Shown here piece after piece: positions 22,628 to 57,596 of a stretch of 57,596 nucleotides of DNA. The notes below the pieces were generated by a model. It searched no databases. It saw only the letters and a program-made list of their open reading frames with translations, and was not told the DNA's origin. Origin of the DNA: Candidatus Omnitrophota bacterium (GTDB lineage: Bacteria > Omnitrophota > Gorgyraeia > Gorgyraeales > Gorgyraeaceae); the NCBI GenBank assembly GCA_013202925.1, contig JABMRA010000087.1:1-57596 (forward strand), given 5' to 3'. The stretch's first letter is position 1. Every line of letters begins with the position of its first letter. Made by a program: the position numbers and the translations under genes.

Positions 22628-22693
22628 AAAACCCCTATGCGTGCGACAAAAACCCCTATGCGTGTTGACAATCGAGGGTTTCTTTGTTATACT
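22628..22693 (+). promoter_or_regulatory. two 16-nt direct repeats abutting a sigma70-type promoter of the glycan/rSAM locus
   Basis: AAAACCCCTATGCGTG at 22628-22643 and 22649-22664, immediately followed by TTGACA (22665-22670), a 17-nt spacer and TGTTATACT (-10 at 22688-22693). ATG at 22705. Confidence 0.5.
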
Positions 22694-22704
22694 GGCAGGC
22701 GTCT

Positions 22705-27963: not shown

Positions 27964-27967
27964 TAAT

Positions 27968-28032
27968 CGCGGAACCACGCGGAACCTCTCGACTTCGCTC
28001 GGGGTAAACTCCCCGCGGAACTAACGCGGAAG
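27968..28032 (+). promoter_or_regulatory. four CGCGGAA(C/G) octamer repeats around a short hairpin in a 75-nt intergenic spacer
   Basis: CGCGGAAC at 27968, 27978 and 28014, and CGCGGAAG at 28025. Hairpin CGGGG-TAAACT-CCCCG at about 27999-28015. Confidence 0.4.
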
Positions 28033-28038
28033 GAAACA

Positions 28039-28422: not shown

Positions 28423-28429
28423 TTTTTAT

Positions 28430-29254: not shown

Positions 29255-29259
29255 TATTT

Positions 29260-30987: not shown

Positions 30988-30988
30988 A

Positions 30989-41768: not shown

Positions 41769-43340
41769 ATGAAAATTGCACTTATTCAATGCCCGGTCTG
41801 GGGAACATATGATCCGCCTGTTGCCCTGGCGCAGCTTTCGGCCTGTCTCAAGAGGGAAGGCCATGAGGTTTGCGTCTTTGACTTAAATATAAAACTATAC
41901 CGCAACCGCACAGAGAATTATAAAAACATGTGGGCCTGGGAGCAGAGTTTATTCTGGTATGATGCGGAACAGGTAAAAAAGTTCTTCAGGGACAATGAAG
42001 ATGATATCAGGCGTTATGCGGCAGGTATAGTTAAGGCAGGGGCCAGGATTGTAGGGTTTTCAGTAAGCGCGGCTTCGTGGTTGGCCAGCATTGAACTGGC
42101 CAAGAGACTCAAGGATATAGACAACAGACTGATAATTGTTTTTGGTGGCCCGCTCTTCTTCGAGAGAAGATACGTAGACTCCATATTAAAGGAGGCGGCT
42201 GTAGATATAGTCATCCCTGGCGAAGGTGAAGTCACTTTTTGCGAACTTGCTGGGGCGATCGAGAACAACAATGATATTTCTTGCTGTAAAGGTATAGCGT
42301 TTAAGAAGGACGGTGAAATCATAAAGACCCAGCCCAGGAAACTTCTGGCGAATCTTGACGATCTGCCGTTTCTGGATTTTTCGGATCTTCCCCTGAAGGA
42401 TTACGATGACTCAAGGCATATCCCTTTTATGGCCAGTCGCGGATGCGTGCAGACCTGCGCCTTTTGCAGCTCCCGCACGTTCTGGCCCGGATACAGGGCC
42501 ATGAGCGGAGAGAGGATGTTCAGGGAGTTTGAGTTCCACAAAAAGACGCAGGGCAGGATAAACCCGGATTTCGGGCATATAGATTTCCTGGATCTACTGG
42601 TAAATGGCAATATGGAATCATTAAATACTTTTTGTGATTTGATGGGCAAGGCCAGACTGAATATCTACTGGAGCGCCAATATGATCATCAGGCCGGAGAT
42701 GACGCCCGACGTGATCAGTAAGATGAAAGAGGCCGGGTGCGAGCATGTTATCTTTGGCATCGAGTCCGGTTCGCAGAGAGTTTTGAATCTGATGAAAAAG
42801 CATTATCGGATCCAGGATGCGGATCGAATAATTAGATGGCTGCATGAAGCGGGCATACTTGTCACCTGTAATTTTATGTTTGGTTTCCCGGGCGAGACAG
42901 AAGAGGATTTTAAGGAGACACTTGATTTTATAAGGAGGAACGCCGGATTTTTAGGCCGGGTCTATCCCAGCAGGACTTTTTGCGCAATAGAAGAATACAG
43001 TTATTTTCACGGCCACCTGGAGGAATTTGGGGTCAAGCCGAACCCGCCGAATCATCTATACTGGGAGAGCATGGACGGCGAGAGCACGTATCCTGTGCGT
43101 TTGGAGCGCTGTGAACAGTTTTGCAATCTTGCTTTGTCTTTGGGTATTGAGGTCGGCTGCGGGGTGCAGACCTCTGTCGAGCTGGATAAATGGCACAATC
43201 TGGGTTTTTATTATGAAGCCAAAAAGGACTACAAGAACGCGATGGACTGCTTTTTAAAATACAATAAACTGGATTCGGCTAATGAAGTGATCCTGAATAA
43301 AATCAATCTTTATTGCCATGAGCTAAAGGAGAGTAGATAG
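41769..43340 (+). CDS. B12-binding domain radical SAM protein (paralogue of 37210-38805)
   Basis: MKIALIQCPVWGTYDPPVALAQLSACLKREGHEVCVFDLNI, SRGCVQTCAFC (first Cys at nt 42444), FGIESGSQRV, and tail LGFYYEAKKDYKNAMDCFLKYNKLD. Confidence 0.85.
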   Translation: MKIALIQCPVWGTYDPPVALAQLSACLKREGHEVCVFDLNIKLYRNRTENYKNMWAWEQSLFWYDAEQVKKFFRDNEDDIRRYAAGIVKAGARIVGFSVSAASWLASIELAKRLKDIDNRLIIVFGGPLFFERRYVDSILKEAAVDIVIPGEGEVTFCELAGAIENNNDISCCKGIAFKKDGEIIKTQPRKLLANLDDLPFLDFSDLPLKDYDDSRHIPFMASRGCVQTCAFCSSRTFWPGYRAMSGERMFREFEFHKKTQGRINPDFGHIDFLDLLVNGNMESLNTFCDLMGKARLNIYWSANMIIRPEMTPDVISKMKEAGCEHVIFGIESGSQRVLNLMKKHYRIQDADRIIRWLHEAGILVTCNFMFGFPGETEEDFKETLDFIRRNAGFLGRVYPSRTFCAIEEYSYFHGHLEEFGVKPNPPNHLYWESMDGESTYPVRLERCEQFCNLALSLGIEVGCGVQTSVELDKWHNLGFYYEAKKDYKNAMDCFLKYNKLDSANEVILNKINLYCHELKESR

Positions 43341-44468
43341 ATGTCAGTCAGGCCGACCGCAGAGATAGACAAAAATCAGAGTTTTTCATTGCTGAGACAA
43401 AGGCAGAGTGATAACTCCAGATTGAATGACGCTGAATTTGAATCCAGGAAAATAATACTCGAGTCTTCGCCAAAGGTCTTTTTTCTACAGGCGGCCGGGC
43501 CCTGCAATTCCCAGTGTGTTTTCTGTTCAAGGGGGAAGGATTATGAATTTTTTGACCTGGAAACGCACAGGCGTCGCTTCGAAAAGAAACTCAGCATATC
43601 TCTTTTAAAGGCAGAGCAGATTGTGCTGACCGGTTCAGGGGAGTATCTCCTTCTTCCTGATGCCGAAAAGATACTGGATTATTTCGAGGATGGCTTCTCG
43701 CATGTAGAGAAGGTGTTTTCCACTAACGGTTCTGGCCTTACGCGTAAAATATGCGATAAGATAACAGGCGGCAAAAGCAAGTATACTATACATCTGAGCC
43801 TTCATTCTTCCAATAAAGACACTCATAAGACTATGACCCGCACGGATAATTTCGATAAGATCATAGATCAGTTGAATTATTTAGTCAGGACAAGAAAAGA
43901 TATGACCATGCCTACATTAAGGCTTATCTTTGTTGCCACCACCCTTAACATAGAAGACCTGCCTGATTTTGTAAGACTGGCAGCGGATCTGGGTGTGGAC
44001 AGGGTGGTCTGTTATTACAATTATATATATGTCCCTGCCCAGAAATACCTTTCCTGTTTCTTTAAGCAGGCGCTAACCAATAGGATGCTGGACGATGCAG
44101 ACAGGATAGCAACCAGGTCAGGCATAGCTATAGACCTGCCTCCGAGGTTCGGGCTGAAGCATTATGCTGCCAATACAGGCATTTGCAGAGAACCATGGAG
44201 TCAGATCATGCTCAATGCCGAAGGCCATGTCCTTCCGTGTGATGCGGCAGAGGATGGCAGCGAAAGCCTGGAAGGAAAGGATTTTATGGATGTCTGGAAC
44301 GGGACCTATTATCAGGATCTGAGAAAAAATATGATAGAGAGCAATAAATCATGCTTCAGGCATTGTTTCAGGGCCAACCCCGTTTCGGTAAACGACTTTC
44401 GCTCGCACGTAATCCGCAGGGGCAAGCAGGGATCAGAGATAGATATAACATGGGGAGATAATTTCTAG
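43341..44468 (+). CDS. radical SAM / SPASM-like protein
   Basis: QAAGPCNSQCVFCSRG (first Cys at nt 43503), TGSGEYLL, and C-terminal CREPWSQIMLNAEGHVLPCD..CFRHC..NDFRSHV. Starts the nucleotide after the upstream stop. Confidence 0.8.
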   Translation: MSVRPTAEIDKNQSFSLLRQRQSDNSRLNDAEFESRKIILESSPKVFFLQAAGPCNSQCVFCSRGKDYEFFDLETHRRRFEKKLSISLLKAEQIVLTGSGEYLLLPDAEKILDYFEDGFSHVEKVFSTNGSGLTRKICDKITGGKSKYTIHLSLHSSNKDTHKTMTRTDNFDKIIDQLNYLVRTRKDMTMPTLRLIFVATTLNIEDLPDFVRLAADLGVDRVVCYYNYIYVPAQKYLSCFFKQALTNRMLDDADRIATRSGIAIDLPPRFGLKHYAANTGICREPWSQIMLNAEGHVLPCDAAEDGSESLEGKDFMDVWNGTYYQDLRKNMIESNKSCFRHCFRANPVSVNDFRSHVIRRGKQGSEIDITWGDNF

Positions 44469-44471: not shown

Positions 44472-46460
44472 ATGATAAAGAGAGACAGAGATTTAGAAGC
44501 ATATTATAAGAATCCGGCAATAGAATCCTGGACTTATGTACACATTGGGATGGAAAATCTACAATTCCACGATCCAGAGATGTATAGTAAGATAAAAGAA
44601 AAACAGGTTATGTTACTTACTGAGATCGATAAGCGAGTTAAGATTATTAGCCAGATTTGTGAGAGATTAGGATTGAATAATTATACAGAAATAAGATTTT
44701 ATATTGACCAGTTTTTACAAAAGTTTCCACTAGGCTTAAGAGATCATGTGGCTTGGGATGATGTTAATTTTATTTTTTTATATCTCCTAACTAAGATGCT
44801 CAGACCAAGGATAATAATCGAAACTGGCTGTAATGTTGGATTTAGCAGCACTTTTATTGCATTAGCAATTAAAGAAAACGATAATGGATGTATGTTTTAT
44901 ACTATGGATCCTCGCCTTGAACACTACCCACAGGGAAGCCCAATTTCTTTTAAATATAGCCATGAAAGACAGCAAGAGATTAATTATTATAGTCTAAGTC
45001 TAAGAGGGAAACATGAACCACTAGGTATTGTTCCACAAGATTTGAGGAAATATATAATTTTTAAGGCTGGAAGATCAAGTAATATTTTACCAGATCTACT
45101 TAAGGATAATCCCAAGATAGATATTTTTTTTCATGATTCAGATCATAGTTACAGAAACGCGATATGGGAATGTACGACAATTTGGCCTTACCTGAGAACT
45201 GGGGGTTATGTTTTGGTTCATGATGTAAGTCATAATTTAGCTTTTAAAGAAGCGTTTAGTAAAATGGAAATCTCAACCAAAGAAGATAACATGGGCATAG
45301 TTAAAAAAACAGATAAGGATTCTATTATGGAAGACCCATGGGCTGATTCACTTGATAATTCCAGACTCAATGATATTGAATATCTATCAAAGAAGCTTAA
45401 ATTAGAGTCATCCCCGCAGAAAATTATTATCCAACTGATGGATTCTTGTAGTTTAAATTGCGTTTTTTGTGCAGGAAGGAAAAGCAATGTAGTATCCAAT
45501 TTCGATAATTTTCGCTGTGGGTTGGAAGGTAAAATCTCGCGTTATATTTCCCAAGCTGATAAAATTATTTTTAAAACCTGTGGAGGGATTTTTCAATCAT
45601 TCGAAATAGAAAATATGATTGTACATTCCTATATTGATTATTTCCAAGAATCCTTTCCTGAAGTAGAAAGAATTTATTTTACTAACGGATTGGAATTAAC
45701 TCCCAGGCTATGTGATTTCATCATCTATTCACAAGGCATAAATAATGCACTGGATATAAATATTAAGAAAAGTACTTTTAATATTTTGTTATATGCTTCA
45801 AATAGTTGTTTGCACAAGATTTTGACAAACAGTGATAGTTTTTCTAGAATCATAGCCCAGGTCCAATATTTTCTTAAGTTAAGAAAGGATAATAATAATT
45901 CTAACATTCATCTTATCTTTGTAGCCACCACTCTCAATATTGAAGATCTGCCTGATTTTGTAAGATTGGCAGCAGATCTTGGAGTTGATAGAGTGATTTG
46001 TTATTATAATTATATATATGTCCCTGCCCAGAAATACCTTTCTTGCTTTTTCAAGCAAGGGCTTACTAATAAAATGCTGGATGAGGCTGAAAAGATAGCT
46101 CACAAATTGAATATAGCAATAGACCTACCGCCTAGATTTGGACTAAAGGATTACCCCATTACTACAGACATTTGTCGAGAGCCTTGGAGTCAAATCATGC
46201 TCAATGCTCAAGGTCACATCCTTCCCTGCGATGCATCAGAGGACACCAATGAGAGCTTGGAAGGAAAGGATTTCATGGATGTCTGGAATGGCTTTTATTA
46301 CCAGAACCTAAGAAAAGGCTTAATCAAGGGAAGTTGTTCGTGTTTCAAGCATTGCTTCCGCGCCAATCCTGCCTCAGTAAATGACTTTCGTTCGCATGTG
46401 ATCCATCGGGGAAAAGGAGGAGCGGATATAGATATATCATGGGGGGATAATTTTCAATGA
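44472..46460 (+). CDS. fusion of a class I SAM-dependent methyltransferase (CmcI/Methyltransf_24-like) and a radical SAM/SPASM-like domain
   Basis: N-terminal half: IIETGCNVGFSSTFIALAI...IFFHDSDHSY...GGYVLVHDV. C-terminal half: MDSCSLNCVFCAGR (first Cys at nt 45447) and a C-terminal region of about 190 aa that is near-identical in protein to the 43341 ORF. Confidence 0.8.
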   Translation: MIKRDRDLEAYYKNPAIESWTYVHIGMENLQFHDPEMYSKIKEKQVMLLTEIDKRVKIISQICERLGLNNYTEIRFYIDQFLQKFPLGLRDHVAWDDVNFIFLYLLTKMLRPRIIIETGCNVGFSSTFIALAIKENDNGCMFYTMDPRLEHYPQGSPISFKYSHERQQEINYYSLSLRGKHEPLGIVPQDLRKYIIFKAGRSSNILPDLLKDNPKIDIFFHDSDHSYRNAIWECTTIWPYLRTGGYVLVHDVSHNLAFKEAFSKMEISTKEDNMGIVKKTDKDSIMEDPWADSLDNSRLNDIEYLSKKLKLESSPQKIIIQLMDSCSLNCVFCAGRKSNVVSNFDNFRCGLEGKISRYISQADKIIFKTCGGIFQSFEIENMIVHSYIDYFQESFPEVERIYFTNGLELTPRLCDFIIYSQGINNALDINIKKSTFNILLYASNSCLHKILTNSDSFSRIIAQVQYFLKLRKDNNNSNIHLIFVATTLNIEDLPDFVRLAADLGVDRVICYYNYIYVPAQKYLSCFFKQGLTNKMLDEAEKIAHKLNIAIDLPPRFGLKDYPITTDICREPWSQIMLNAQGHILPCDASEDTNESLEGKDFMDVWNGFYYQNLRKGLIKGSCSCFKHCFRANPASVNDFRSHVIHRGKGGADIDISWGDNFQ

Positions 46461-48190
46461 TAGTAAAACTTGAAAAACCTTTGATGCGCTTTACCTGGAA
46501 TATAGTCTATGACTGTAATTATCGCTGTTCCTACTGTTTCTTTGAAGGCAAGTGGGAGGAGTATGGGAAAAGAAATGTCTATCTTTCACCGGATGAATGG
46601 TTGCAGTACTGGAAGAGGATTCATGATAAATACGGCCCTCCTTATATAGTTATAACCGGAGGAGAACCTTTTAATTACCCGCATTTTATTGAATTGATAA
46701 AGAAAATTTCACAGATCAGCACACATGTAAATATTTCGAGCAACTCTTCGGGTGATCTGAATAAATTTGTAAAGGAGGTAGATCCGCAGAATGTTTCATT
46801 ATCGCTTAGTTTTCAGCCAGAATTTGACAGCTTAGAGGATTTTATCGATAGACTCCTTTTTATTAGAAAACATAAATTTGATGGTTGCGTAAACTTTGTT
46901 GCCTATCCGCCTTTTTTAAAAGATATAACTTATCACAAGGAGAAGATCTCCTCTATAGGCGAAACCTTGAAGGTTATCCCATTTTTCGGCGAATACAAAA
47001 GAACAGGTTATCCAGAGGGATATACTCAGGAACAGAGGCAGCTGGTTGGCATCGATGATAACTGGTTTAAGAAGGTAAGAAGGAAAGGATCCCTTTGTTC
47101 GGCAGGCCAGAAGACCGCGCTTGTTTTTCCTGATGGAAAGGTTGCCCGCTGTGGCCAGATTGGCGAAGAGATGGTTTTAGGAAGTTTTTTTGACTCAGAT
47201 TTTAAGTTGCTGGATAACCCCTTAGCCTGCGAGGCTGAGTATTGCCCCTGTGATGAAGGAAAGGTCGCGCCTGAAGATGACGAACCCGACACTTTGCCAG
47301 CCAATGCACAGGATTCGGGGAGCAAAGTGGAGTCGAAGACCGGATCAGTATCTTCCGGCCCTCCAAATGGCAGAGATGTGCGTTTTACATGGGACATTCA
47401 TTATAAATGTAATTTTCGCTGTCCTTACTGCTGGTTTTATGAAGGATGGGCTGAGGCAGGCAGGAGGAATCTATATCTTTCTCCTGAGGAGTGGTTAGCG
47501 CATTGGTCAAGGATCTACGATAGGTATGGTTGTGTCCATATAGAGATTACAGGAGGAGAACCCTTCTTATATCCTAAATTTGTAGAATTGGTCAAATCAT
47601 TATCCGCTATCCACACGGTTAAGGTCACTACTAACCTGTCCGGGGATGTAGAGAGGTTTGCCAGAGAGATAGACCCTAAAAGGGTAAACATGGATCTGAA
47701 TTTTCACGTGCTCTTTATTGATCTCGAGACAGTTACAAATAAGGCCCTGATTTTAAAGAAAGTTGGTTTTAAAGTGGGTATTTGTTACCTTGCCTATCCT
47801 CCTCAAATGCAGGCAGATAAGATAAAATTTTATGACGAACATTTTAGAAATTTAGGAATAGGTTTTGCATTGGCTGCGTTTTGGGGCGAATACCAAGGAA
47901 AAAGATATCCTGAGAGCTACTCTACTTCGGAAAGAGAATTTATGCGCCCTTTCCTGGGAGACATAGACAGGTTTACTTATCACTTAAATGCTGAAAGCCC
48001 AAGAGGAAAATTGTGTAATGCCGGGCATATATATGCCGGCATCCATTCCAACGGGGATGTGGTTAGGTGCGGGCCTTTGGCAGATAAGGTAATAGGCAAT
48101 ATCAGAAACGAGGATTTTCGGCTTTTGGATAAACCTTTGCCTTGCGAGGCAGATACCTGTCCCTGCAATGAATATGTAAATTTACTTTAA
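46457..48190 (+). CDS. tandem didomain protein of a compact radical-SAM module (CNYRC-type), modules 1 and 2
   Basis: FTWNIVYDCNYRCSYC (Cys at nt 46514) and FTWDIHYKCNFRCPYC (Cys at nt 47408). Each module continues with TGGEPF..YP, AYPP, YP(E)(G/S)Y, and LC.AGQ/H...G.V.RC...C....CPC. An acidic/Ser-rich linker spans aa 268-307. ATGA overlap upstream. Confidence 0.8.
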   Translation: MIVKLEKPLMRFTWNIVYDCNYRCSYCFFEGKWEEYGKRNVYLSPDEWLQYWKRIHDKYGPPYIVITGGEPFNYPHFIELIKKISQISTHVNISSNSSGDLNKFVKEVDPQNVSLSLSFQPEFDSLEDFIDRLLFIRKHKFDGCVNFVAYPPFLKDITYHKEKISSIGETLKVIPFFGEYKRTGYPEGYTQEQRQLVGIDDNWFKKVRRKGSLCSAGQKTALVFPDGKVARCGQIGEEMVLGSFFDSDFKLLDNPLACEAEYCPCDEGKVAPEDDEPDTLPANAQDSGSKVESKTGSVSSGPPNGRDVRFTWDIHYKCNFRCPYCWFYEGWAEAGRRNLYLSPEEWLAHWSRIYDRYGCVHIEITGGEPFLYPKFVELVKSLSAIHTVKVTTNLSGDVERFAREIDPKRVNMDLNFHVLFIDLETVTNKALILKKVGFKVGICYLAYPPQMQADKIKFYDEHFRNLGIGFALAAFWGEYQGKRYPESYSTSEREFMRPFLGDIDRFTYHLNAESPRGKLCNAGHIYAGIHSNGDVVRCGPLADKVIGNIRNEDFRLLDKPLPCEADTCPCNEYVNLL

Positions 48191-48211
48191 AAGAGTCGCT
48201 TAAATAAAGCA

Positions 48212-50107
48212 ATGAAGAATTTAAAATCAAAAAAGAAAAAAATAAATAAAAGAAAGGTCTCTTTCACCTGGAATATACATTTCGCCTGCAATTACCGGTG
48301 CCCGTATTGCTGGTTTGATGAGAACTGGCATCACCTGGCCAAATTTAACACTACTTTTGGAGTCAGGGAGATAGTGAGATGCTGGAACAGGGTGTACAGA
48401 AAATACGGCAGTACCCATATTGATATTCTGGGCGGAGAGCTGTTTCTTTATCCAAATTTTGTAGATATAGTAAAGGAATTGTCGCGGCGTCACAGTATCA
48501 GTGTGTCCACGAATTTAACGACAGATGTAAAGAGGTTTATTAAAGAGGTAAGTTCTGCCAATGTGAAGATAACCGCCTCCTTTCATCCTATATTCGCAGA
48601 CACGGAGTTATTTATAAAGAAGGTGTCTCTCTTCAAAGACAGCAAGTTTGATATAAATATCTCATATCTCGCGTACCCGCCGCACTTAAAGCTGATAGGA
48701 TATTATAAAAAAATATTTGATAGGGCGGGGCTTTCAATCGGACTGAGTACCTTTTGGGGAAAATATAATGGTATGGATTATCCTCAGAGTTACACAAAAG
48801 AAGAGAAGGAATTGATAAGGCCTTACCTGGGAAGTCGTTCGGGAAGGCCTTTTCAGGTAGAGCCTAAAAAGATAAAAAAGGGCTCTCTTTGCAGGGCAGG
48901 CCAGATTTATGCTGTTATTCAAACAGACGGCAGGGTTCAGCGATGCGGCATGGATTCTTTTGAAGGTCATTTGGGTAATATATTTGATAAGGGGTTCAAT
49001 CTGTTAGAAGAACCAGGACCCTGTAATTCTGAAAGCTGCCCGTGTAATGAATGGGCATTTTTACTTGTTGAAAAAGATAGTAGTTTGGATCTGTCCGGGG
49101 TTGCAACGGCAGACAAGAAGCCCGTGGCCTCAAAGGCCCGTGGATCCTTAAGCCCAAGATTTCCCAGGATCGATCCTCCTTATAAGGTGTTCTGGAACTG
49201 GGAGATTACCTACGCCTGTAATTATAAATGCACTTATTGTTATTTTTGGAAGATCAAGGAAAGGCACGCGCCTATTGATGTGGATAGATGGAGCGGTATA
49301 TGGGATGATATATTCGATAAATACGGTTGTTGCCATATTCGTTTTTCGGGGGGAGAACCTACCCTGTACCCCGGTTTTTTTGATCTACTGGCTGAATTAT
49401 CCAGTAAACACACTATAGATATAACTACTAATTTCAGTTTCGACATCTATGAGTTAATTGAAAAGGTAAATCCTCAACCCCTGATGATCTCCCCCAGCTT
49501 TCATCCCGAATTTGATGAAATAAAAGATTTTTTGAAAAAGATAGCCATCTTACGTAAGCACAATTTTCTTGCAAGCGGCATAGCCTACGTAGCATACCCG
49601 CCGCATCTTTCAAAGTTAAAAAAAGTCATGAAAACAACCGAAAGAAATAATGTCGAGTTCAAAATAATACCATTCAACGGTGAATTTAATGGCCGGCAGT
49701 ACCCACAAGGTTATAATGACAAAGAGAAAGGCCTGTTAAAGGATGCGGCTGAGGATTCTAGTTCAAAAGAGCTGAACACCCGATGGCTAAATTGGCATGT
49801 AAATGATAATGATTTGGACAAAAAAGATAAAGGGGCCAAAGAGATCTCGCATTTATGTAGAATGGGGCAGATGTATGCAAGGATTGGTCCGGATGGAAAG
49901 GTCACCAGATGCTGTCATCCGCAAAGTGATGTTTTAAGCAGTATTTTTGGCGATGATTTTAGAATTCTGGATGAACCAAAGCTATGCAATATTGCAAATT
50001 GCCCTTGTTTTAAGGCGATGTTTGTAGGAGAAGAGGGGTCCTGGTTGCCTCATTGGGGAGCGCCCGAACATCCTCTTTTGCCCAAGGTTAATAATATAGA
50101 GGTGTAA
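48212..50107 (+). CDS. tandem didomain protein of the compact radical-SAM module, modules 3 and 4
   Basis: FTWNIHFACNYRCPYC (nt 48287) and FWNWEITYACNYKCTYC (nt 49217). LCRAGQIYAVIQTDGRVQRC..CNSESCPC and LCRMGQMYARIGPDGKVTRCC..CNIANCPC. Confidence 0.8.
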   Translation: MKNLKSKKKKINKRKVSFTWNIHFACNYRCPYCWFDENWHHLAKFNTTFGVREIVRCWNRVYRKYGSTHIDILGGELFLYPNFVDIVKELSRRHSISVSTNLTTDVKRFIKEVSSANVKITASFHPIFADTELFIKKVSLFKDSKFDINISYLAYPPHLKLIGYYKKIFDRAGLSIGLSTFWGKYNGMDYPQSYTKEEKELIRPYLGSRSGRPFQVEPKKIKKGSLCRAGQIYAVIQTDGRVQRCGMDSFEGHLGNIFDKGFNLLEEPGPCNSESCPCNEWAFLLVEKDSSLDLSGVATADKKPVASKARGSLSPRFPRIDPPYKVFWNWEITYACNYKCTYCYFWKIKERHAPIDVDRWSGIWDDIFDKYGCCHIRFSGGEPTLYPGFFDLLAELSSKHTIDITTNFSFDIYELIEKVNPQPLMISPSFHPEFDEIKDFLKKIAILRKHNFLASGIAYVAYPPHLSKLKKVMKTTERNNVEFKIIPFNGEFNGRQYPQGYNDKEKGLLKDAAEDSSSKELNTRWLNWHVNDNDLDKKDKGAKEISHLCRMGQMYARIGPDGKVTRCCHPQSDVLSSIFGDDFRILDEPKLCNIANCPCFKAMFVGEEGSWLPHWGAPEHPLLPKVNNIEV

Positions 50108-50191
50108 GATGCATGCTTGTAGATAAGGAAGAATACTGGCCGGCTTACTGGAGCAGCCCTAACAGCCTTAATTTAAAAGGGAAAGAATAAA

Positions 50192-51640
50192 ATGTGTGAA
50201 GCAATTTCTCCTCGTGTCTTTTTCACGTGGGATATTCATTATAAATGTAATTATTACTGCAGTTATTGCTTTTTGCATTTTGAGCCTGAAACGGCAAATA
50301 TTGAAGCAGTTTATTTAGAGGTCGAAGAGTGGGTTAAAATCTGGACAGATATTTATAAAAGATATGGTCCTTGCCATATCTTGGTGACCGGAGGAGAGCC
50401 GTTTACTTACCCGAATTTTATGGATTTGGTTTCTTCTTTATCAGAGATGCATACGTTTGGTTTTTCGACAAACCTTTCATGGGATATCAACGAGTTTATA
50501 AAAAAGGTGAACAGGCTTAAGGTAGAGATAGAGGCAAGTTTTCACCCGGAATTTATAGGCGCCGAAGAGTTTTTGAAGAAAATAAAATTATTAAAAAAGA
50601 AGGATTATTTGGTGAGCGCCACGGTTGTGGCATATCCTCTCTTGCTGGATAAGATTATAAAGTATAAAGAGATATTTAAAAAAGAAGGCGTCAGGTTGAA
50701 CCTCTATCCTTACAGGGGGCCGCATGATTCCAGGAATTATCCGGATGCATACTCAGAGTCAGAGAGGCAGCTCTTGAAAAAACTGGGTCTTGAGATCGGC
50801 ATAAAGGCCAGCAGGGGACTTATGGATGTATATAAATTAACGCAGGATGGCAATGCTCAGGAGAAAAAACAAGAAGGCAAGATCTGTAGGATGGGACAGA
50901 GATACGCAAAGATCATCCCGAACGGGGAGGTCTACAGGTGCTGTGCAGCTGTAAATAAAAAATGGGGAGATCTGGGCAATGTCATAAAAAAGACATTTGA
51001 ACTGCTTGATAGGCCTGGACTCTGTCCAGACCCCATGAACTGCACCTGTTATAAATCTATGGTCATGGGAGAAGAAGATAGATGGCTGGGGTATTGGAAG
51101 ATCCCCAATGACTTTAGGGCCGAAAAAAAGATGAGGGATGAATTAGGGGTCGCCAAGAAACTTCGTGACACTGGGAAAATAGAAGAGGCTGTTGATAAGA
51201 TAAACCAAATCTTGAAGACGCGGCCCGGGAACGTCAGGGCACTTACGTTACTCGGAGAAGTTTATTTACAAAAAAAAGATTTTGTAACTGCCGGTAATAC
51301 ATTGCAAGAGGCCTTAAAAAATAATTCTAACCCTGATGACGCCTCATGGATTTACAGGACGCTGGGCAGGTTTTATTTTGAGTCAGCCATGAATAATAAC
51401 GATACAAAAAAAGAAGGGTTCGGTCAATCTCTGGATTGCCTGGAAAAGGCAATAAGATTCGCAGATAAATCCAATAATGTCGCAGATAAAGCGTGGGCAC
51501 ACTATGAGATTGCCACTGTATATCATAATAAAAAGAATTACCCCAAGGCTCAGGAGAATCTAAAGATGGCCCTTGAATATGAGCCCGAAAACGGGCATTT
51601 TAGAGAACTTCGTACATTGTTGGAAAAGGACGCAAGGTGA
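50192..51640 (+). CDS. compact radical-SAM module (module 5) fused to C-terminal TPR repeats
   Basis: FTWDIHYKCNYYCSYC (nt 50246), TGGEPFTYP, ICRMGQRYAKIIPNGEVYRCC..CPDPMNCTC. TPR-like repeats from about aa 320 (LTLLGEVYLQKKDFVTAGNTLQEAL, AHYEIATVYHNKKNYPKAQENLKMAL). Confidence 0.8.
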   Translation: MCEAISPRVFFTWDIHYKCNYYCSYCFLHFEPETANIEAVYLEVEEWVKIWTDIYKRYGPCHILVTGGEPFTYPNFMDLVSSLSEMHTFGFSTNLSWDINEFIKKVNRLKVEIEASFHPEFIGAEEFLKKIKLLKKKDYLVSATVVAYPLLLDKIIKYKEIFKKEGVRLNLYPYRGPHDSRNYPDAYSESERQLLKKLGLEIGIKASRGLMDVYKLTQDGNAQEKKQEGKICRMGQRYAKIIPNGEVYRCCAAVNKKWGDLGNVIKKTFELLDRPGLCPDPMNCTCYKSMVMGEEDRWLGYWKIPNDFRAEKKMRDELGVAKKLRDTGKIEEAVDKINQILKTRPGNVRALTLLGEVYLQKKDFVTAGNTLQEALKNNSNPDDASWIYRTLGRFYFESAMNNNDTKKEGFGQSLDCLEKAIRFADKSNNVADKAWAHYEIATVYHNKKNYPKAQENLKMALEYEPENGHFRELRTLLEKDAR

Positions 51641-51686
51641 GAGAGTCAAGCAGTGAAAGGCTGGGCTATTGCTGCGGGAGACTAAG

Positions 51687-53582
51687 ATGTTGACAGAGAA
51701 AATTTGTTTTTGCTGGAATATAAATTACCGGTGTAATTATCGATGTCCGTATTGTTTCTTTTATAACAGATGGGATAGGGTTGTAAAAGATAACGGAAAT
51801 TTTCCAGCCGAGGACTGGATAAAGAGCTGGCGCCGCATTTATGATATTTATGGAAGCGCAAAGATAGAGACAGCAGGGGGGGAGCCGTTTACTTTTCCTT
51901 CTTTCGTGAGATGCATAAATGAGATATGTAAATTGCACAGCCTTAGGATTACAACAAATCTTTCCTGTTCAACAGAGATTCTGAAGACGATTATCGGACA
52001 AAACAGTCCCGAGAGACTAAAATGGAACATAACCTTCCATCCGAGTTTCGCTAATGTCGATGATTTTTTAAAAAAGGCCCTGCTTTTGAAGCGCAACAAA
52101 TTTGAAGTTTTGACAATGTATGTTGGTTATCCCCCTCAGTTAAAGATGATGCCGCATTTTAGGAGTATATTTCAAGAAAACGGGATCACCTTTTTTGCAC
52201 AGGCATTTCAGGGAGAACATAACAGGATAGCCTATCCTCAGGGTTATACAGAAGAGGAAAGGCAGCTGATGGGCGATCTCAAGAAGGACGATTGTCACGG
52301 AGGGTTAAAGAGACTAATAGAAAATCAATTGCTTAAAAAACAAACAAAGGGCAAATTATGTCTTGCCGGATCGAAATATGCATTTGTTGATTCCACGGGA
52401 GAGGTATACAAATGTTCCCGTGAAAGAAAGAATTCAATGGGGAATTTTCTGGAGCATGATTTTAGATTATATGATCGGCCGCTGCCGTGCGAGTTTGAAT
52501 ATTGCCCTTGTGAATTTACATGGCTGGTTGAAGAAGAGGCGATTCGAGAAAAGCAAGACATGAAGGACCAGGATAAAATCGAGGCGGATCTGCCTTTGAC
52601 GGAATTATCCGGTAAAGCAGCAGTTTGTCAGACGCAGGATAAATATCCTGCCCCTGGTCGAGTCTATTGGTGCTGGGATATACATAATGCATGTAATTAT
52701 AAGTGCCCATATTGCTGGCTTAACACTCCTCACGAAGATGCCCCAAAGGACGTTCATCCTTATCCCGGGATTGATAAACTGGTAAAGATCTGGGCCGATA
52801 TTTATAAGAAATATGGAAGATGCCATATTCATATTTCCGGAGGCGAACCTTCTATCTACCCGTCTTTCTTTGAGTTGATAGGTAAACTTTCGCAATTGCA
52901 TTATGTAGAATTCGACACCAACCTATCTTTTGACCCAGTTGATTTAGTAAGGAATACAGAAGAAGGCCGTAGATTAAAGATAGGGGCTACATTGCACCCA
53001 GAATTTACTGACTTAAATACCTTCTTTTCGAAAGTGCTCCAGTTAAAGGGCGGCGGTTTTAGAATCGGGATGACGTGCGTAGGTTATCCGCCACACTTGA
53101 AAGATATTCGCAGATATAAAGATATATGCGATAAGAATAACGTTGAATTTAATATCCAGGCCTTTAGAGGGGCTTTTAATGGCAAGGAATATCCAACAGC
53201 GTATGACGATGCAGAAAAAGAACTTATTGGCATACAGGCTGAAGATGTTACCAGTCGGATATTAGATTATCACATCAGTGAGAGAGACAAGAAAAAGGAA
53301 AAAGTCCGGAGGTTATGCAGAATGGGTCAAATGGGCGCCAAGATCTATCCGAACGGAGATGTTTTTAGATGTTGTATGCCTGAGGACGATCATAGGATAG
53401 GCAATATTTTCAATGACGATGATTTTAGGTTATTTGATGGACCAAGATATTGTGAGAAGAGTCCGTGTCCTTGTTGGAGGGCCATGATTATTGGCAAGGA
53501 AGATGATTGGCAGCATTACTGGTATCGCATGGAAACAGATAGTAGGTATTGTGATAGAAATTTACAAACTAAGCAAGATTGA
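51687..53582 (+). CDS. tandem didomain protein of the compact radical-SAM module, modules 6 and 7
   Basis: CWNINYRCNYRCPYC (nt 51732) and CWDIHNACNYKCPYC (nt 52692). LCLAGSKYAFVDSTGEVYKC..CEFEYCPC and LCRMGQMGAKIYPNGDVFRCC..CEKSPCPC. ATG at 51687 is preferred to TTG at 51669. Confidence 0.8.
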   Translation: MLTEKICFCWNINYRCNYRCPYCFFYNRWDRVVKDNGNFPAEDWIKSWRRIYDIYGSAKIETAGGEPFTFPSFVRCINEICKLHSLRITTNLSCSTEILKTIIGQNSPERLKWNITFHPSFANVDDFLKKALLLKRNKFEVLTMYVGYPPQLKMMPHFRSIFQENGITFFAQAFQGEHNRIAYPQGYTEEERQLMGDLKKDDCHGGLKRLIENQLLKKQTKGKLCLAGSKYAFVDSTGEVYKCSRERKNSMGNFLEHDFRLYDRPLPCEFEYCPCEFTWLVEEEAIREKQDMKDQDKIEADLPLTELSGKAAVCQTQDKYPAPGRVYWCWDIHNACNYKCPYCWLNTPHEDAPKDVHPYPGIDKLVKIWADIYKKYGRCHIHISGGEPSIYPSFFELIGKLSQLHYVEFDTNLSFDPVDLVRNTEEGRRLKIGATLHPEFTDLNTFFSKVLQLKGGGFRIGMTCVGYPPHLKDIRRYKDICDKNNVEFNIQAFRGAFNGKEYPTAYDDAEKELIGIQAEDVTSRILDYHISERDKKKEKVRRLCRMGQMGAKIYPNGDVFRCCMPEDDHRIGNIFNDDDFRLFDGPRYCEKSPCPCWRAMIIGKEDDWQHYWYRMETDSRYCDRNLQTKQD

Positions 53583-53627
53583 TAGTTATATATTAAAAGT
53601 TTTTTAAACTGAACAAAGGAGCTAAAG

Positions 53628-54440
53628 TTGAAATTTACTTTTGGCTGGGATTTATGTTATACATGCAATTACCGCTGTCCGTATTGTGGCATTTGGGAAA
53701 ACAGGTCAGATAGCGATCTTTTTCTGTCTGCCGAAGAATGGGGTGCGATTTGGGACAGGGTCCATGCCAAGTATGGAAGCTGCCACATCTACATGTCAGG
53801 GGGCGAACCGTCTTTTTACCCTGGTTTTTATGACCTAGCGTTAAGATTGGCGCAGAGGCATTCGATAGAGATATGCACCAACCTGTCCTGGGATATAGAT
53901 AGATTGGTGCCGCAGATCCCGGCTGGCACATTAAAGATAGCCGCGACCTTTCATCCAACGTTTGCCAGGTTTGAGGAATTTTTTGAAAATGCGGTAAGGG
54001 TAAAGGAGTATCTACCTAATTCGCAGATATATTATGTGGCGCATCCAGGCCAGATCAGGGAAATGCCTGAAAGGAGCAGGAGATTAAAAGAGCAAGGCGT
54101 AGATCTTATACCATTACCTCTTAGGGGAGACGGATATGTGCTTAACTCAGACGAAGAAAAAAGGATAGTTGAGGAGGTAAGTCCTTACAAAGGCGAGAAG
54201 ATAGAATATCAGTTACAGAGGATCTCGCCTAAAGGCAAGCTGTGCAGGGCAGGCCAGTTTTACGCTGTTATCAGGGCAAATGGCGCGGTGGACCGCTGCA
54301 GTCAGCATAGAAACGGAGGGCTTGGAAATTTTTTGTCAGAGGAGTTTGGTTTATTCGACAAACCTGTTCTTTGCGAGAAGGACTACTGTCCAATAGAATC
54401 ACAATGGATAATAAATGAACAAAGAATTAGAACTAACTGA
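53628..54440 (+). CDS. single compact radical-SAM module (module 8)
   Basis: TTG start 6 nt after AAGGAG. FGWDLCYTCNYRCPYC (nt 53664), SGGEPSFYP, LCRAGQFYAVIRANGAVDRC..CEKDYCP. Confidence 0.75.
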   Translation: MKFTFGWDLCYTCNYRCPYCGIWENRSDSDLFLSAEEWGAIWDRVHAKYGSCHIYMSGGEPSFYPGFYDLALRLAQRHSIEICTNLSWDIDRLVPQIPAGTLKIAATFHPTFARFEEFFENAVRVKEYLPNSQIYYVAHPGQIREMPERSRRLKEQGVDLIPLPLRGDGYVLNSDEEKRIVEEVSPYKGEKIEYQLQRISPKGKLCRAGQFYAVIRANGAVDRCSQHRNGGLGNFLSEEFGLFDKPVLCEKDYCPIESQWIINEQRIRTN

Positions 54441-55014
54441 AAACAAAATCAGGAAAGTAATTGATGAACTAAGGCAATATTATAGAAGTCTAGAATTCGG
54501 CCCTGTTAGCGATGAGGAAGGCCGCATCTTGCAGATATTGATTGAAATTTCAAATGCTAAAGATGTTTTAGAAATAGGTACATCACTCGGGGTTTCTTCG
54601 CTTTGGATGACCTTAGGTCTTTTAAAGACAAAGGGGAAATTGATAACCTTTGAAGCTATGCCTGAACATGCGCAGTTTGCAAGACAAAATTTTGAAAAAG
54701 CCGGCGTACAGGATATTATTACTCTTATAGAGAGAGACGCTGTATATTTTAGTCCATTATTAAAAGACAAATTTGATTTCATATTTATGGACGGACTCGA
54801 AAGAGAATATTTAATGTTCTTTAATCTTTTTTTCCCTTTGTTGAAGGAAGGAGGCATTATTGTTGCTCATGATGTTATAACAAAGGCGAATGATGCGCAG
54901 GATTACATTGAAACATTAAACAAAGATAGGCGTGTTACTAATTGTATTATCAGAGGCCCTGAGATAGCAACGGGCATGCTTATAACTTATAAGAATAAGG
55001 AATTGACAGGTTAA
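54415..55014 (+). CDS. class I SAM-dependent O-methyltransferase (caffeoyl-CoA OMT / Methyltransf_3-like)
   Basis: VLEIGTSLGVSSLWM (motif I), FDFIFMDGLEREY, and GGIIVAHDV. 26-nt overlap with the upstream gene. Confidence 0.75.
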   Translation: MNKELELTENKIRKVIDELRQYYRSLEFGPVSDEEGRILQILIEISNAKDVLEIGTSLGVSSLWMTLGLLKTKGKLITFEAMPEHAQFARQNFEKAGVQDIITLIERDAVYFSPLLKDKFDFIFMDGLEREYLMFFNLFFPLLKEGGIIVAHDVITKANDAQDYIETLNKDRRVTNCIIRGPEIATGMLITYKNKELTG

Positions 55015-55020
55015 AACAGG

Positions 55021-57596
55021 ATGGGCAAAAGGCAGACAGGTAATTTACAAGTAGCTTTTCCGCGAAAAACCCCTCCTTACAGAGTTTTTTTCACATGGGA
55101 GATAACATACAATTGTAACTATCGCTGCACTTATTGCCATGCCCCAAAACCAGGGAATCCTGATACAAGAAAAACGACTTCTCTGGACGCAAAGAAATGG
55201 ATAGGGATATGGGACGATGTGTATAAGAATTACGGGGCATGTTTTATTCTTATAAGCGGCGGGGAGCCCTTTGCCTACCCGTCTTTTATGGATCTGGTAA
55301 CGCAGCTTCATAAAAAACACATAATCGAACTTTGCACAAATCTGGAATGGGATGTGAAGCCATTTGTAAAAAATATGGATCCAAAAAGGATAAAGGTCGC
55401 GACCAGCCTGCACCCGGAGTTTGCCGATCTGGACAGGTTTTTGCATAGGCTGAAACTTCTGAAGGACAATGGCTTCAGGACGCATGTGAATTTTGTCCCA
55501 TGGCCCCCGTTTTTAGAAAGAATGGCGGAATACAAGGAAAAGGTGGAGGCGCTGGGCGTTCAATTTATATTGCAGCCTTTTATAGGAGATTATGAGGGCA
55601 GGAGATATCCTCAGGGTTACACTGAATCCGAAAGAGAATATTTTAAGATATTCAAGGATTCCTGTAATATAAGCACGCTCGATTTCAAGACGACCAACGA
55701 ATCCAACAAGAAAGGCAAACTCTGCAGAATGGGACAGAATTACGCATTTATTCATCCTGACGGGGCTGCAGACAGGTGCTGTAAGGATCACAGCGTAGCA
55801 TTGGGTAATGTGATAGACAAGACATTTAGGTTGCTGGAAGAGCCGGCTGCCTGCACAATCGAAGAATGCAACTGCTGGCGGTGCATGCTCGTAGAGAAAG
55901 AACCTGAATGGGTAAATCACTGGGGCTGGGCCGAGATAGAAGACATAGAGCCAGTCGCTATAAAATCAGAACCCTCCGGAGCGAGGCAGGGCGAGGTTTT
56001 GGATGGAAGGGATTCTGGTGCGAGGGTGGCGCTGGTACAGCTGCCGCCATGGGGAGTCTTTGATCCCCCTAACGCGCTTGCGCAGATGTCCAGCTATATA
56101 AAGCGGGACGGTCACAAGGCGGCAGTGTTTGATGTCAATGTCGGATTGTATAATAGCAAAAGAGAGCAGTATAAGACAGTATGGGCCATAGAGCAGAGCG
56201 GATTCTGGCATAATCAGGAGAATGTTTTAAAGTTCTTCAATGATAACAGCGAGACAATCAATGATTTCATCCAAAGGATTATTGCTGTTGAGCCAGAAGT
56301 CGTCGGCCTTTCCGTAAGCTCGGCTTCTTTGCACTTTGCGATGGAGTTTGTTAAGAAGATAAAAGAGAAGAGGCCTCAGGTAAAGATTGTTTTTGGAGGG
56401 GCCATGTTTTTTGTCCAGGTGGATATGGAATCCATTTTAAATAATGGCTGTGTGGACATAATTATTCTCGGGGAAGGAGAAGAATCCTTTTCCGAATTGC
56501 TGCAGATATTAAGGGATGGCAGGGACCTTGGATTATGCAGGGGGATATGCTTTAAAAAAGGCGGCAAGATAGTGAATACAGGGCCAAGGGAATACATGAA
56601 AAATCTGGATGAACTTCCGTTTCTGGATTTCAGTGATTTGCCTCTGGACAGATATGACCCGCCAGGGCATCTGGGCAGACATATTTCCCTTATGACAAGC
56701 CGCGGGTGCATACAGAATTGCGTGTTCTGTGGCCCAAAGGCCTACTGGCAGGGATTCAGGACAATGAGCGGTAAGCGCATCTATGATGAGATAAGGTACC
56801 ATATTGCCTTAAACCCAGATATAGAGCATATAGAATTCCTTGATCTGCTTTTTAATGGAAGCATTAAGACCTTAAATGACTTCTGTGATTTAATGATCAG
56901 CGACCCGCCTAAGCCGGGCTTAAAATGGCACGTCAATGCGATCATCAGGCCAGAGATGACTTTGGAGGTATTTCAGAAGATGAAGCGTGCCGGGTGCCAT
57001 CACATAACTTATGGCATTGAATCTGGCTCTCAAAGGGTCTTGGGCCTGATGAAAAAACGTTATAAGGTAAAAGATGCGGATGATGTCCTTGAGAATAATC
57101 ATAAGGCAGGCATAGAGGTTACCTGCAATTTTATGTTTGGCTTCCCCGGAGAGACAGAGGAGGATTTTCAAGAGACCCTTGATTTTTTAAGGCGCAATTC
57201 GAGATATATCACAACCGCCTATCCCAGTCGCACGTATTGCACAGTAGAGCCTTTTAGTTACATGGAAAAACAGATGGAAGAGTTTGATATGGTGCCGAAT
57301 AAGGATTATCCTATCTATTGGGAGTCGCGGGACAGCCGCAATAATTATCCTGAGAGGCTCAGGAGGTGCGAGGTGTTTTCCAGCCTGGCCTTATCCCTGG
57401 ACGTAGCAGTTGGGAGCGGGCTTCAGACCTCGGTGGAATTGGATAAATGGTTCAGTCTCGGTTTTTACTATCTTGCCAAAAAGGACAGCGGGTCAGCCAA
57501 AAGGTCTTTCCAGAATTACCTGAAACTGGACCCCAAAAATGAGGTTATAAATAATAAGATTCACGAGCTTGATAATGCGCTCAATGCAGACAGGCC
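55021..57596 (+). CDS. fusion of compact radical-SAM module 9 and a B12-binding radical SAM domain, 3'-truncated by the window edge (not in the supplied ORF track)
   Basis: My own translation from ATG 55021 has no stop to nt 57596. MGKRQTGNLQVAFPRKTPPYRVFFTWEITYNCNYRCTYC (Cys at nt 55114) ...LCRMGQNYAFIHPDGAADRCC..CTIEECNC.. linker ..VALVQLPPWGVFDPPNALAQMSSYIKRDGHKAAVFDVNV...SRGCIQNCVFC (Cys at nt 56707)...YGIESGSQRV...LGFYYLAKKDSGSAKRSF. The minus-strand track ORFs here are antisense artefacts. Confidence 0.8.
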   Translation, partial: MGKRQTGNLQVAFPRKTPPYRVFFTWEITYNCNYRCTYCHAPKPGNPDTRKTTSLDAKKWIGIWDDVYKNYGACFILISGGEPFAYPSFMDLVTQLHKKHIIELCTNLEWDVKPFVKNMDPKRIKVATSLHPEFADLDRFLHRLKLLKDNGFRTHVNFVPWPPFLERMAEYKEKVEALGVQFILQPFIGDYEGRRYPQGYTESEREYFKIFKDSCNISTLDFKTTNESNKKGKLCRMGQNYAFIHPDGAADRCCKDHSVALGNVIDKTFRLLEEPAACTIEECNCWRCMLVEKEPEWVNHWGWAEIEDIEPVAIKSEPSGARQGEVLDGRDSGARVALVQLPPWGVFDPPNALAQMSSYIKRDGHKAAVFDVNVGLYNSKREQYKTVWAIEQSGFWHNQENVLKFFNDNSETINDFIQRIIAVEPEVVGLSVSSASLHFAMEFVKKIKEKRPQVKIVFGGAMFFVQVDMESILNNGCVDIIILGEGEESFSELLQILRDGRDLGLCRGICFKKGGKIVNTGPREYMKNLDELPFLDFSDLPLDRYDPPGHLGRHISLMTSRGCIQNCVFCGPKAYWQGFRTMSGKRIYDEIRYHIALNPDIEHIEFLDLLFNGSIKTLNDFCDLMISDPPKPGLKWHVNAIIRPEMTLEVFQKMKRAGCHHITYGIESGSQRVLGLMKKRYKVKDADDVLENNHKAGIEVTCNFMFGFPGETEEDFQETLDFLRRNSRYITTAYPSRTYCTVEPFSYMEKQMEEFDMVPNKDYPIYWESRDSRNNYPERLRRCEVFSSLALSLDVAVGSGLQTSVELDKWFSLGFYYLAKKDSGSAKRSFQNYLKLDPKNEVINNKIHELDNALNADR

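Follow-up and report, generated by a model that had tools for sequence, protein, structure and literature searches.

We analysed a 57,596-nucleotide stretch of DNA from Candidatus Omnitrophota bacterium (contig JABMRA010000087.1, positions 1 to 57,596), hereafter the window, which ends in an array of six genes encoding nine copies of one compact radical S-adenosylmethionine (SAM) module, numbered M1 to M9. These genes, and an O-methyltransferase gene embedded among them, had been described in an original prediction made from the letters alone, and all seven were confirmed as open reading frames (ORFs) on the forward strand. Three of the proteins are head-to-tail didomains, as had been proposed. 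Gene g1 (46457-48190) encodes 577 amino acids (aa), with M1 at nucleotides (nt) 46478-47272, M2 at nt 47372-48187 and an acidic/Ser-rich linker (aa 274-304) between them. The other two didomains are 631 aa long: g2 (48212-50107) carries M3 (nt 48251-49081) and M4 (nt 49181-50041), and g4 (51687-53582, with an alternative TTG start at 51669) carries M6 (nt 51696-52556) and M7 (nt 52656-53522). Between them lies g3 (50192-51640, 482 aa), in which M5 (nt 50210-51091) precedes a C-terminal tetratricopeptide repeat (TPR) domain (aa 317-479, nt ~51140-51628). Gene g5 (53628-54440, 270 aa) consists of the single module M8. The class-I SAM-dependent O-methyltransferase gene (54415-55014) starts 26 nt before the end of g5 and matches PF01596 at 91.7 bits (cutoff 22). 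The last gene, g7 (55021-57596), combines M9 (nt 55078-55935) with a B12-binding (class B) radical-SAM domain in a protein of at least 858 aa, and its reading frame is still open at the end of the window. The genes follow each other at distances of 21, 84, 46, 45, -26 (the overlap) and 6 nt. Pfam confirms the three accessory features read from the letters: TPR on one protein, a B12-dependent fusion on another and an O-methyltransferase inside the array.

A regular-expression scan placed the first Cys of the CxxxCxxC motif of the nine modules at 46514, 47408, 48287, 49217, 50246, 51732, 52692, 53664 and 55114, exactly where it had been predicted. One more CxxxCxxC, at 56707, is part of the B12-dependent half of g7 and not of a module. 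This half (aa 411-723, nt ~56251-57189) has the class B layout, i.e. an N-terminal B12-binding domain (PF02310, 51.2 bits against a cutoff of 32.1, aa 411-493) followed by a radical-SAM core (PF04055, 117 bits, aa 559-723). It reaches no specific NCBIfam family: the best scores are 153 bits for TIGR03975 (cutoff 282) and 143 bits for HpnJ (cutoff 578).

The nine modules are 265-294 aa long (about 270), align end to end with 29 invariant columns, and are 31-43 % identical in pairwise comparisons. A hidden Markov model (HMM) built from the nine copies scores them at 344-414 bits (M1 369, M2 386, M3 397, M4 397, M5 404, M6 399, M7 401, M9 414), whereas the other radical-SAM genes of the window obtain only 21-31 bits. 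Their mutual similarity is therefore far beyond chance. The family is also sharply delimited, since none of 264 domain hits in 68 sequences scores between 50 and 150 bits. That the modules are radical-SAM domains is clear from PF04055, which exceeds its gathering threshold in all six array proteins (37-117 bits, cutoff 29.5). The GGE motif of SAM binding is invariant in the nine modules and in 60 sequences. Among 243 modules from 67 loci, CxxxCxxC is kept in 240, four distal Cys (C216, C234, C259 and C264 in M9 numbering) in 94-95 % and a fifth (C266) in 79 %. All nine modules of the window retain CxxxCxxC, GGE and the four distal Cys. The other motifs quoted in the original prediction stand as a consensus with exceptions. 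M3 has GGELF, M1 has SNSS and FQPEF, M5 has CTC and M9 has CNC. M8 lacks the Y.G..YP box through an 8-aa deletion and ends in CPI in place of CPC. It represents a subtype defined by this and a 3-aa deletion, the ending CPIESQW and exactly four distal Cys. Because this subtype has no fifth Cys, a single auxiliary cluster is probably ligated by the four conserved ones.

Fold, relatives and fusions of the module

The distal Cys had been compared to a twitch or SPASM site. The SPASM profile PF13186 matches only from its position 1 to positions 36-49 of 67; g2, for example, has PF04055 together with a partial PF13186, and in g3, g5 and g7 the profile is absent or below its cutoff. The full seven-Cys SPASM motif (PF13186 or TIGR04085) is not found, as the modules have four or five distal Cys and leave the second half of the profile unmatched. 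SkfB, which gives the best sequence match in the PDB (E = 1.5e-8), has a twitch motif, C-x17-C…C-x4-C-x-C, that aligns with the distal Cys of the module. Together with the conservation of these Cys, the partial SPASM match and this alignment favour the twitch-type (half-SPASM) site. An AlphaFold2 model of M9 built on a 60-sequence alignment (predicted local distance difference test, pLDDT, 87.5; predicted TM-score, pTM, 0.87) has six β/α units, followed by β-hairpins and a terminal helix. In this model, the module is a (β/α)6 partial TIM-barrel radical-SAM core with a twitch-type domain.

The top Foldseek matches are all twitch/SPASM-clade enzymes (SkfB, BlsE, SuiB, CteB, anSME, viperin, MoaA and EpeE, with TM-scores of 0.55-0.60 and identities of 12-18 %), and several matches, i.e. 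BlsE, viperin, MoaA and SpeY, act on sugars or nucleosides. The module sits in this clade, without a close structure. Like the module, the twitch enzymes SkfB, BtrN, SpeY, BlsE and MoaA combine a radical-SAM partial TIM barrel with a short β-hairpin Cys domain. The likeness is greatest for SkfB, which is best both by PDB sequence search and by Foldseek and whose C-x-C end motif aligns with that of the module. However, TM-scores over these enzymes are only 0.37-0.60 at 12-18 % identity, none of their NCBIfam models comes near its cutoff for the module, and SkfB has an N-terminal peptide-binding domain that the module lacks. In addition, these enzymes are not known to occur in paralogous arrays or tandem fusions. 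As to mechanism, the closest analogues are BtrN, SpeY, BlsE and MoaA, whose substrates resemble carbohydrates.

In NCBIfam, all modules match best to NF038073, the STM4011 family, and do so over nearly the whole length of its profile. The scores remain at 61-148 bits per protein (summed over two domains in the didomains), against a cutoff of 200. Profile comparison of STM4011 and the module with hhalign gave a probability of 99.2 % (E = 3.6e-19, 237 columns, 24 % identity), and the alignment spans the CNYxCPYC box to the distal C..G / RC / PC / CxC pattern. Annotated plasmid STM4011 proteins are 21-25 % identical to M9 and, at about 280-290 aa, similarly compact. They differ from the module in having WGE at the position of GGE. 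STM4011 is moreover a single-copy gene in a five-gene cassette (STM4015, STM4014, the hydrolase STM4013, the radical-SAM protein STM4012 and STM4011), with DUF6745 alongside and toxin-antitoxin and transposase genes adjoining in two plasmid records (Methylobacterium and Deinococcus). The window has arrays, fusions and glycan genes instead, and none of the cassette partners was seen there (NCBIfam on nine window proteins, Pfam on the rest). On these comparisons, the module is best classed as a sister family of STM4011 and not as a member. We found no functional description of STM4011 to STM4015 in the literature.

The next-best matches in NCBIfam, PADLOC and the PDB are MoaA and viperin. These matches, including those to the PADLOC profile pVip, are confined to the generic N-terminal 80-120 residues of the module. 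The viperin model NF038283 scores 26-80 bits (cutoff 180), with its best stretches at about profile positions 4-114 of 281, and pVip reaches E-values down to 1e-26 over profile positions 3-100 of 257 only. It had been claimed that the module could not be assigned to any characterised family. NCBIfam, the PDB sequence search and Foldseek agree in this respect, as no characterised family claims it in any of them. Yet it is no orphan, being a full-length homologue of STM4011 with some 700 unnamed clusters of relatives. Some JGI records name such proteins glycyl-radical activases; we dropped this label, as the names are generic and no glycyl-radical enzyme lies near.

These relatives were counted in several ways. 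A word-indexed search returned 665, most of them single-module proteins of 270-290 aa with generic names only, and mostly from metagenome-assembled genomes (MAGs) of Candidatus Omnitrophica/Omnitrophota and Elusimicrobia. An exhaustive search of representatives clustered at 50 % identity gave 698 matches at E ≤ 1e-30 and 3230 at E ≤ 1e-10. A scan of species genomes identified 66 module loci, nearly all from MAGs of Omnitrophota or Elusimicrobiota/Endomicrobia; a few bear the label Planctomycetales or just 'bacterium'. The family thus comprises about 700 clusters at 50 % identity and is nearly confined to Omnitrophota and Elusimicrobiota. NCBI lists one of the window proteins (P0340) under the name 'radical SAM protein [Candidatus Omnitrophica bacterium]'. 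Literature searches combining radical SAM with Omnitrophota, Elusimicrobia, glycosyltransferase, O-antigen/B12 or tandem radical-SAM domains returned no functional description of the module or of its arrays. In a preprint on Omnitrophota genomes, radical SAM features only as one of the Pfam families of a giant-protein sugar-metabolism module.

The number of modules per locus varies from 1 to 10 within ±10 kb of the match. Genes with several modules occur in 14 loci besides the window, all of Omnitrophota type, whereas Elusimicrobiota encode modules as separate neighbouring genes. Orthologues of M1, M2, M8, M9 and M4 in other genomes are 60-73 % identical to them, well above the values among the window paralogues. 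The M1-M2 pairing recurs as a didomain in other genomes, and over 40 proteins are orthologous to g1 along its full length (53-90 % identity). M8 orthologues are found in Omnitrophota and in Elusimicrobiota at 59-70 % identity and keep every feature of the subtype. Since identity is higher between orthologues than between paralogues, and since the M8 form is kept across two phyla, the pattern points to maintenance rather than decay. It argues for ancient paralogues with separate, maintained functions.

The AlphaFold2 model of g1, made with 85 paired sequences, gave a pLDDT of ~95 for both halves and of 30-41 for the linker, with a pTM of 0.51. Because of the low values for the linker and for the whole, the model indicates two autonomous modules on a flexible, disordered tether, and we rejected an obligate pseudo-dimer. 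The description of the family as one of tandem didomains fits the window, and the didomain is conserved in Omnitrophota, but this form does not extend to the family at large: most members are single modules of ~275 aa, and the model shows no fixed interface. The didomain is a lineage-specific tether. A useful comparison is FbiC, the F0 synthase that carries the CofG and CofH radical-SAM domains on one polypeptide for two defined successive steps of one pathway. Its halves are separate in other organisms, as modules are fused in Omnitrophota and separate in Elusimicrobiota. The halves of FbiC come from different families, whereas those of the didomains are paralogues of one family, up to three of which are fused, and their linker is disordered. 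The tri-module proteins measure 885-983 aa.

Modules are also fused to other domains. We observed fusions with B12-dependent or SPASM radical-SAM domains (P0124, P0125, P0126, P0143, P0146, P0148 and P0373) and, besides g3, with TPR (P0025, P0118, P0174, P0156 and P0170). A GT2(-GT2)-GT4/GT1 multi-glycosyltransferase is fused to a module in four separate 50 %-identity clusters (P0198, P0232, P0255 and P0230), where the module forms the C-terminal radical-SAM part of the protein. On a 5.5-kb JGI contig, an M1/M2-like module is joined to a complete aldo/keto reductase (P0342; PF00248, aa 318-589), which hints at keto-sugar or carbonyl chemistry. The gene next to it encodes a fusion of a module with a SPASM radical-SAM domain.

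Glycan genes around the modules

We scanned the ORFs of at least 150 aa in the window with Pfam. The array stands at the end of a Wzm/Wzt-type cluster encoded on the same strand. The assembly and export core of this cluster (22684-30987) consists of six genes, i.e. a GT4/GT1 glycosyltransferase (starting at 22684), an initiating transferase of the Glycos_transf_4 family (PF00953, 23835), a flavin adenine dinucleotide (FAD) oxidoreductase (24830), a carbamoyltransferase (26149), the ABC-2 permease Wzm (PF01061, 28430) and the ATPase Wzt with its Wzt_C domain (PF00005 and PF14524, 29260). Next comes a polymerase-like protein of 2077 aa (30980-37213) with the architecture GT2-GT2-GT4/GT1-radical-SAM-SPASM. 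It is followed by a B12-dependent radical-SAM gene with TPR (37210-38805), a radical-SAM/SPASM gene (38771-39850), a GT-C glycosyltransferase of the PMT_2 family (39979-41676), a second B12-dependent radical-SAM gene (41769-43340) and two more radical-SAM/SPASM genes (43341-44468 and 44472-46460), the last with an N-terminal Methyltransf_24 domain. The array lies directly downstream of these two genes, which belong to another radical-SAM family than the modules. The cluster therefore has the elements of an ABC-transporter-dependent polysaccharide pathway: permease, Wzt_C ATPase, initiating transferase and cytoplasmic glycosyltransferases. In total, the window encodes 18 radical-SAM domains, i.e. 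the nine modules, five B12-binding ones (genes at 9383, 17188, 37210 and 41769, and the C-terminus of g7) and four of SPASM type (the 2077-aa protein and the genes at 38771, 43341 and 44472).

Some of these genes have peculiarities of their own. The last ~670 nt of the genes at 43341 and 44472 are 86 % identical at the DNA level, with long identical stretches, and the 44472 gene has gained its Methyltransf_24 domain, which is AT-rich (GC about 0.36). Such a pair suggests a recent event, either partial duplication or gene conversion. The PMT_2 gene at 39979-41676 has a GC content of 0.33, compared with ~0.44 for the window, which could result from foreign origin or from the composition bias of membrane proteins. 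A hydrophobic ORF of 127 aa occupies the gap at 27963-28430, just upstream of wzm.

The same context is found in other genomes. In all five contigs with precomputed Pfam annotation (L067, L068, L070, L071 and L072), modules occur with B12-dependent radical-SAM, radical-SAM/SPASM and glycan genes. The latter vary by contig and include GDSL/SGNH, PMT_2, GT9, GT2, GT4, DegT, YdjC and GH5. In L067, L070, L071 and L072, the genes come in the order seen here and begin with a homologue of the giant glycosyltransferase (1739-2183 aa). We then probed the ±10 kb around each module locus with proteins of the window. B12-dependent radical-SAM genes are near modules in 52-53 of the 66 loci, and SPASM-type ones in 42-51. 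Among loci of at least 12 kb, a glycan probe matched in 12 of 16 of Omnitrophota type and in 9 of 24 from Elusimicrobiota or others. Wzm and Wzt adjoin modules in seven Endomicrobia/Elusimicrobia loci. Of the two kinds of neighbours that the original prediction proposed to look for, glycan genes thus co-occur with homologues of the modules, while no plausible precursor ORF was found in the gaps of the window and no gene associated with ribosomal peptides in six annotated neighbourhoods.

Possible role of the array

The modules may best be understood as functional, non-redundant twitch radical-SAM paralogues that tailor a surface polysaccharide in a position-specific manner, a reading to which we give a probability of about 55 %. 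The polysaccharide would have its start on polyprenyl phosphate, with the 2077-aa multi-glycosyltransferase as polymerase and Wzm/Wzt as exporter, and the modules would act in the cytoplasm on the polyprenyl-linked or nascent glycan. Each module is predicted to hold a SAM-cleaving [4Fe-4S] cluster in its (β/α)6 core and one auxiliary Fe-S cluster on four Cys of the β-hairpin domain. The 5'-deoxyadenosyl radical would take the H atom from a particular C-H position of a sugar, and the paralogues would divide the labour, one per residue or position. Their partners would be the five B12-dependent radical-SAM proteins (probably C-methylases), the four SPASM-type ones, the SAM methyltransferases and the carbamoyltransferase. 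Fusions with another module, TPR, a B12-dependent domain or the polymerase could hold these enzymes together at fixed stoichiometry, without forming composite active sites. The earlier proposal of iterative or position-specific chemistry on one polymer agrees with the glycan context and with the glycosyltransferase fusions. What the analysis shows is a twitch radical-SAM architecture that looks functional, the great age and specialisation of the paralogues, and their linkage, by fusion and by gene neighbourhood, to glycan polymerisation and export. The glycan as substrate and the position-specific action are both inferred, and nucleoside diphosphate (NDP) sugar precursors might be modified instead.

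The type of reaction is more speculative. We favour an oxidation by two electrons, similar to those of BtrN and SpeY, that would turn a sugar hydroxyl into a ketone and in which the fully ligated auxiliary cluster would serve as electron sink. The ketone would then allow epimerisation, amination or C-methylation. This is a first guess because the auxiliary cluster appears fully Cys-ligated, because BtrN, SpeY and BlsE are relatives and because one module is fused to an aldo/keto reductase. Epimerisation or deoxygenation as the direct outcome are equally open.

More tentatively, Omnitrophota and Elusimicrobiota may run a radical-SAM 'assembly line' on the nascent surface glycan. Dozens of twitch, SPASM and B12-dependent enzymes, some fused to the polymerase, would alter unactivated sugar carbons by oxidation, epimerisation, deoxygenation or C-methylation and yield hyper-modified glycans. 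We know of no described counterpart of such glycans. They would be a carbohydrate counterpart of polytheonamide, where B12-dependent radical-SAM C-methylases and a second radical-SAM type hyper-modify one polymer at unactivated carbons. The polytheonamide enzymes (PoyB/C/D) and the window both mix B12-dependent radical-SAM enzymes with other radical-SAM types. However, polytheonamide is a ribosomal peptide modified by few iterative enzymes, whereas the window presents a polysaccharide context, many specialised paralogues and no precursor peptide that we could find.

Several observations weigh against a role in glycan tailoring. Within ±10 kb, 15 of the 24 loci of at least 12 kb from Elusimicrobiota or others have no glycan gene, and the glycan counts given above come with no background from glycosyltransferases in random 20-kb segments. 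Two loci in Elusimicrobiota MAGs consist almost only of radical-SAM genes in Pfam annotation. In L023 (1-20771), 15 of 16 genes are of this type, six of them modules and nine others, and L012 (1-20792) has seven modules, five B12-dependent and three SPASM-type radical-SAM proteins, together with a metallo-β-lactamase-fold gene and a B12-radical-SAM-GDSL-TPR fusion; at 20 kb each, the flanks of these two loci are too short to test the link with glycans. The nearest structural neighbours of the module include the peptide-modifying SkfB, SuiB, CteB and anSME. We found no substrate, product or activity in the literature for any member of the family or for STM4011, and the oxidation proposal has as its basis the analogy with twitch dehydrogenases and a single aldo/keto reductase fusion.

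These points bear on the alternatives in different ways. Each paralogue could make a different unusual NDP-sugar by acting on soluble precursors, through radical dehydration, deoxygenation, epimerisation or rearrangement, as viperin, MoaA, BlsE and DesII do on nucleotides or nucleoside sugars. The glycan context suits this equally well, and the next-best matches MoaA and viperin bind nucleoside triphosphates, while BlsE acts on a nucleoside sugar. We nevertheless consider it unlikely. Similarity to viperin and MoaA is limited to the generic N-terminal part of the module, no nucleotidyltransferase, 4,6-dehydratase or NDP-sugar epimerase/reductase was detected by Pfam among the ORFs scanned in the window, and the fusion of modules to a polymerase is more easily explained by action on a growing chain. 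It is less probable still that the array serves a pathway unrelated to glycans, such as the synthesis of a cofactor, tetrapyrrole or lipid, with the glycan genes as chance neighbours. Such a pathway has been put forward for groundwater Elusimicrobia, whose 'extensive suite of radical SAM proteins' comprises up to 13 radical-SAM genes, some with B12 domains, beside NifHDK paralogues (Méheust et al., 10.1101/765248). That study describes dense radical-SAM arrays in a phylum where module arrays are common, but it does not define the module family. The islands L023 and L012, with no glycan gene inside 20 kb, would fit such a pathway. On the other hand, a search for NifH-type P-loops was empty in the window and within ±10 kb of 67 loci, so that we dropped the nitrogenase link for these loci. 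The window yielded no gene of Nif-like, HemN_C or tetrapyrrole type, and both the glycosyltransferase fusions and the repeated synteny with the giant glycosyltransferase argue against a chance neighbourhood.

Maturation of a ribosomally synthesised and post-translationally modified peptide (RiPP), in the manner of polytheonamide, where B12-dependent C-methylases and a radical-SAM epimerase act many times on one precursor, appears very improbable. It would account for the maturases SkfB, SuiB and CteB among the closest structures and for the best NCBIfam match of the B12-dependent half of g7, since TIGR03975 is a RiPP C-methyltransferase family, although at a score far below its cutoff. The modules, however, have no RiPP recognition element (RRE) or PqqD-like domain, their radical-SAM core beginning at about residue 10, and they are fused to glycosyltransferases. 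Neither the array nor its surroundings contain a small ORF resembling a precursor gene; scans of all intergenic gaps yielded nothing but one pilin-like ORF, one membrane ORF and tRNA genes translated from the reverse strand. The six annotated neighbourhoods contain no peptidase, transporter or leader-peptide family. Finally, we give almost no credence to the modules being viperin-like antiviral enzymes, or to several of them being pseudo-enzymes that decayed after duplication. The low E-values of pVip would suggest the former and the motif deviations of M3, M8, M5 and M9 the latter. We rejected the antiviral role, as the pVip matches are limited to the first ~100 profile positions, NF038283 remains far below its cutoff and the genes are in a glycan operon, not in a defence island. 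Decay was rejected as well: none of the nine modules has lost CxxxCxxC, GGE or any of the four distal Cys, and the deviant M8 form is a subtype conserved across two phyla.

The array thus suggests, without proving, radical tailoring of the sugars of a polymer on an unusual scale. Radical-SAM enzymes known to act on carbohydrates use small molecules, i.e. aminoglycosides, nucleoside antibiotics and nucleotides, and we are aware of no report in which a polysaccharide is tailored by radical chemistry to this extent. Here, one glycan cluster encodes 18 radical-SAM domains, and some relatives have islands of 20 kb made almost entirely of such genes. If modules do tailor surface glycans, two phyla that are widespread and for the most part uncultured would carry sugars of as yet undescribed chemistry on their cells; many Omnitrophota are regarded as ultra-small or host-attached. 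The ~700 clusters of compact enzymes (~270 aa) would then be a source of new C-H functionalisation reactions, and the STM4011 cassette of Salmonella and other bacteria would gain its first structural and evolutionary reference point. The system is now defined for testing in terms of module boundaries, conserved residues, natural polymerase fusions and a set of genes for co-expression.

Other features of the window

The window can be regarded as chromosomal, because it encodes DnaG, RpoD, three tRNAs and the RNase P RNA. These housekeeping genes separate the main cluster from a second, small glycan-like group at 4012-10825, composed of a PMT_2 protein with TPR, a TPR protein, a GT2, a methyltransferase and a B12-dependent radical-SAM protein. 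An ORF of 340 aa at 11419-12441 has no Pfam match at E ≤ 1e-4. We also observed two copies, roughly 88 % identical, of a GC-rich element of ~113 nt (3066-3198 and 18803-18934), which matches no Rfam family. They lie directly 3' of tRNA-Ala (2976-3051) and tRNA-Met (18692-18768), and each is followed by an 18-20-nt duplicate of the 3' end of the tRNA (3181-3198 repeats 3032-3049, and 18915-18934 repeats 18748-18767). The arrangement resembles that of a miniature element which targets the 3' ends of tRNA genes and duplicates its target on insertion.

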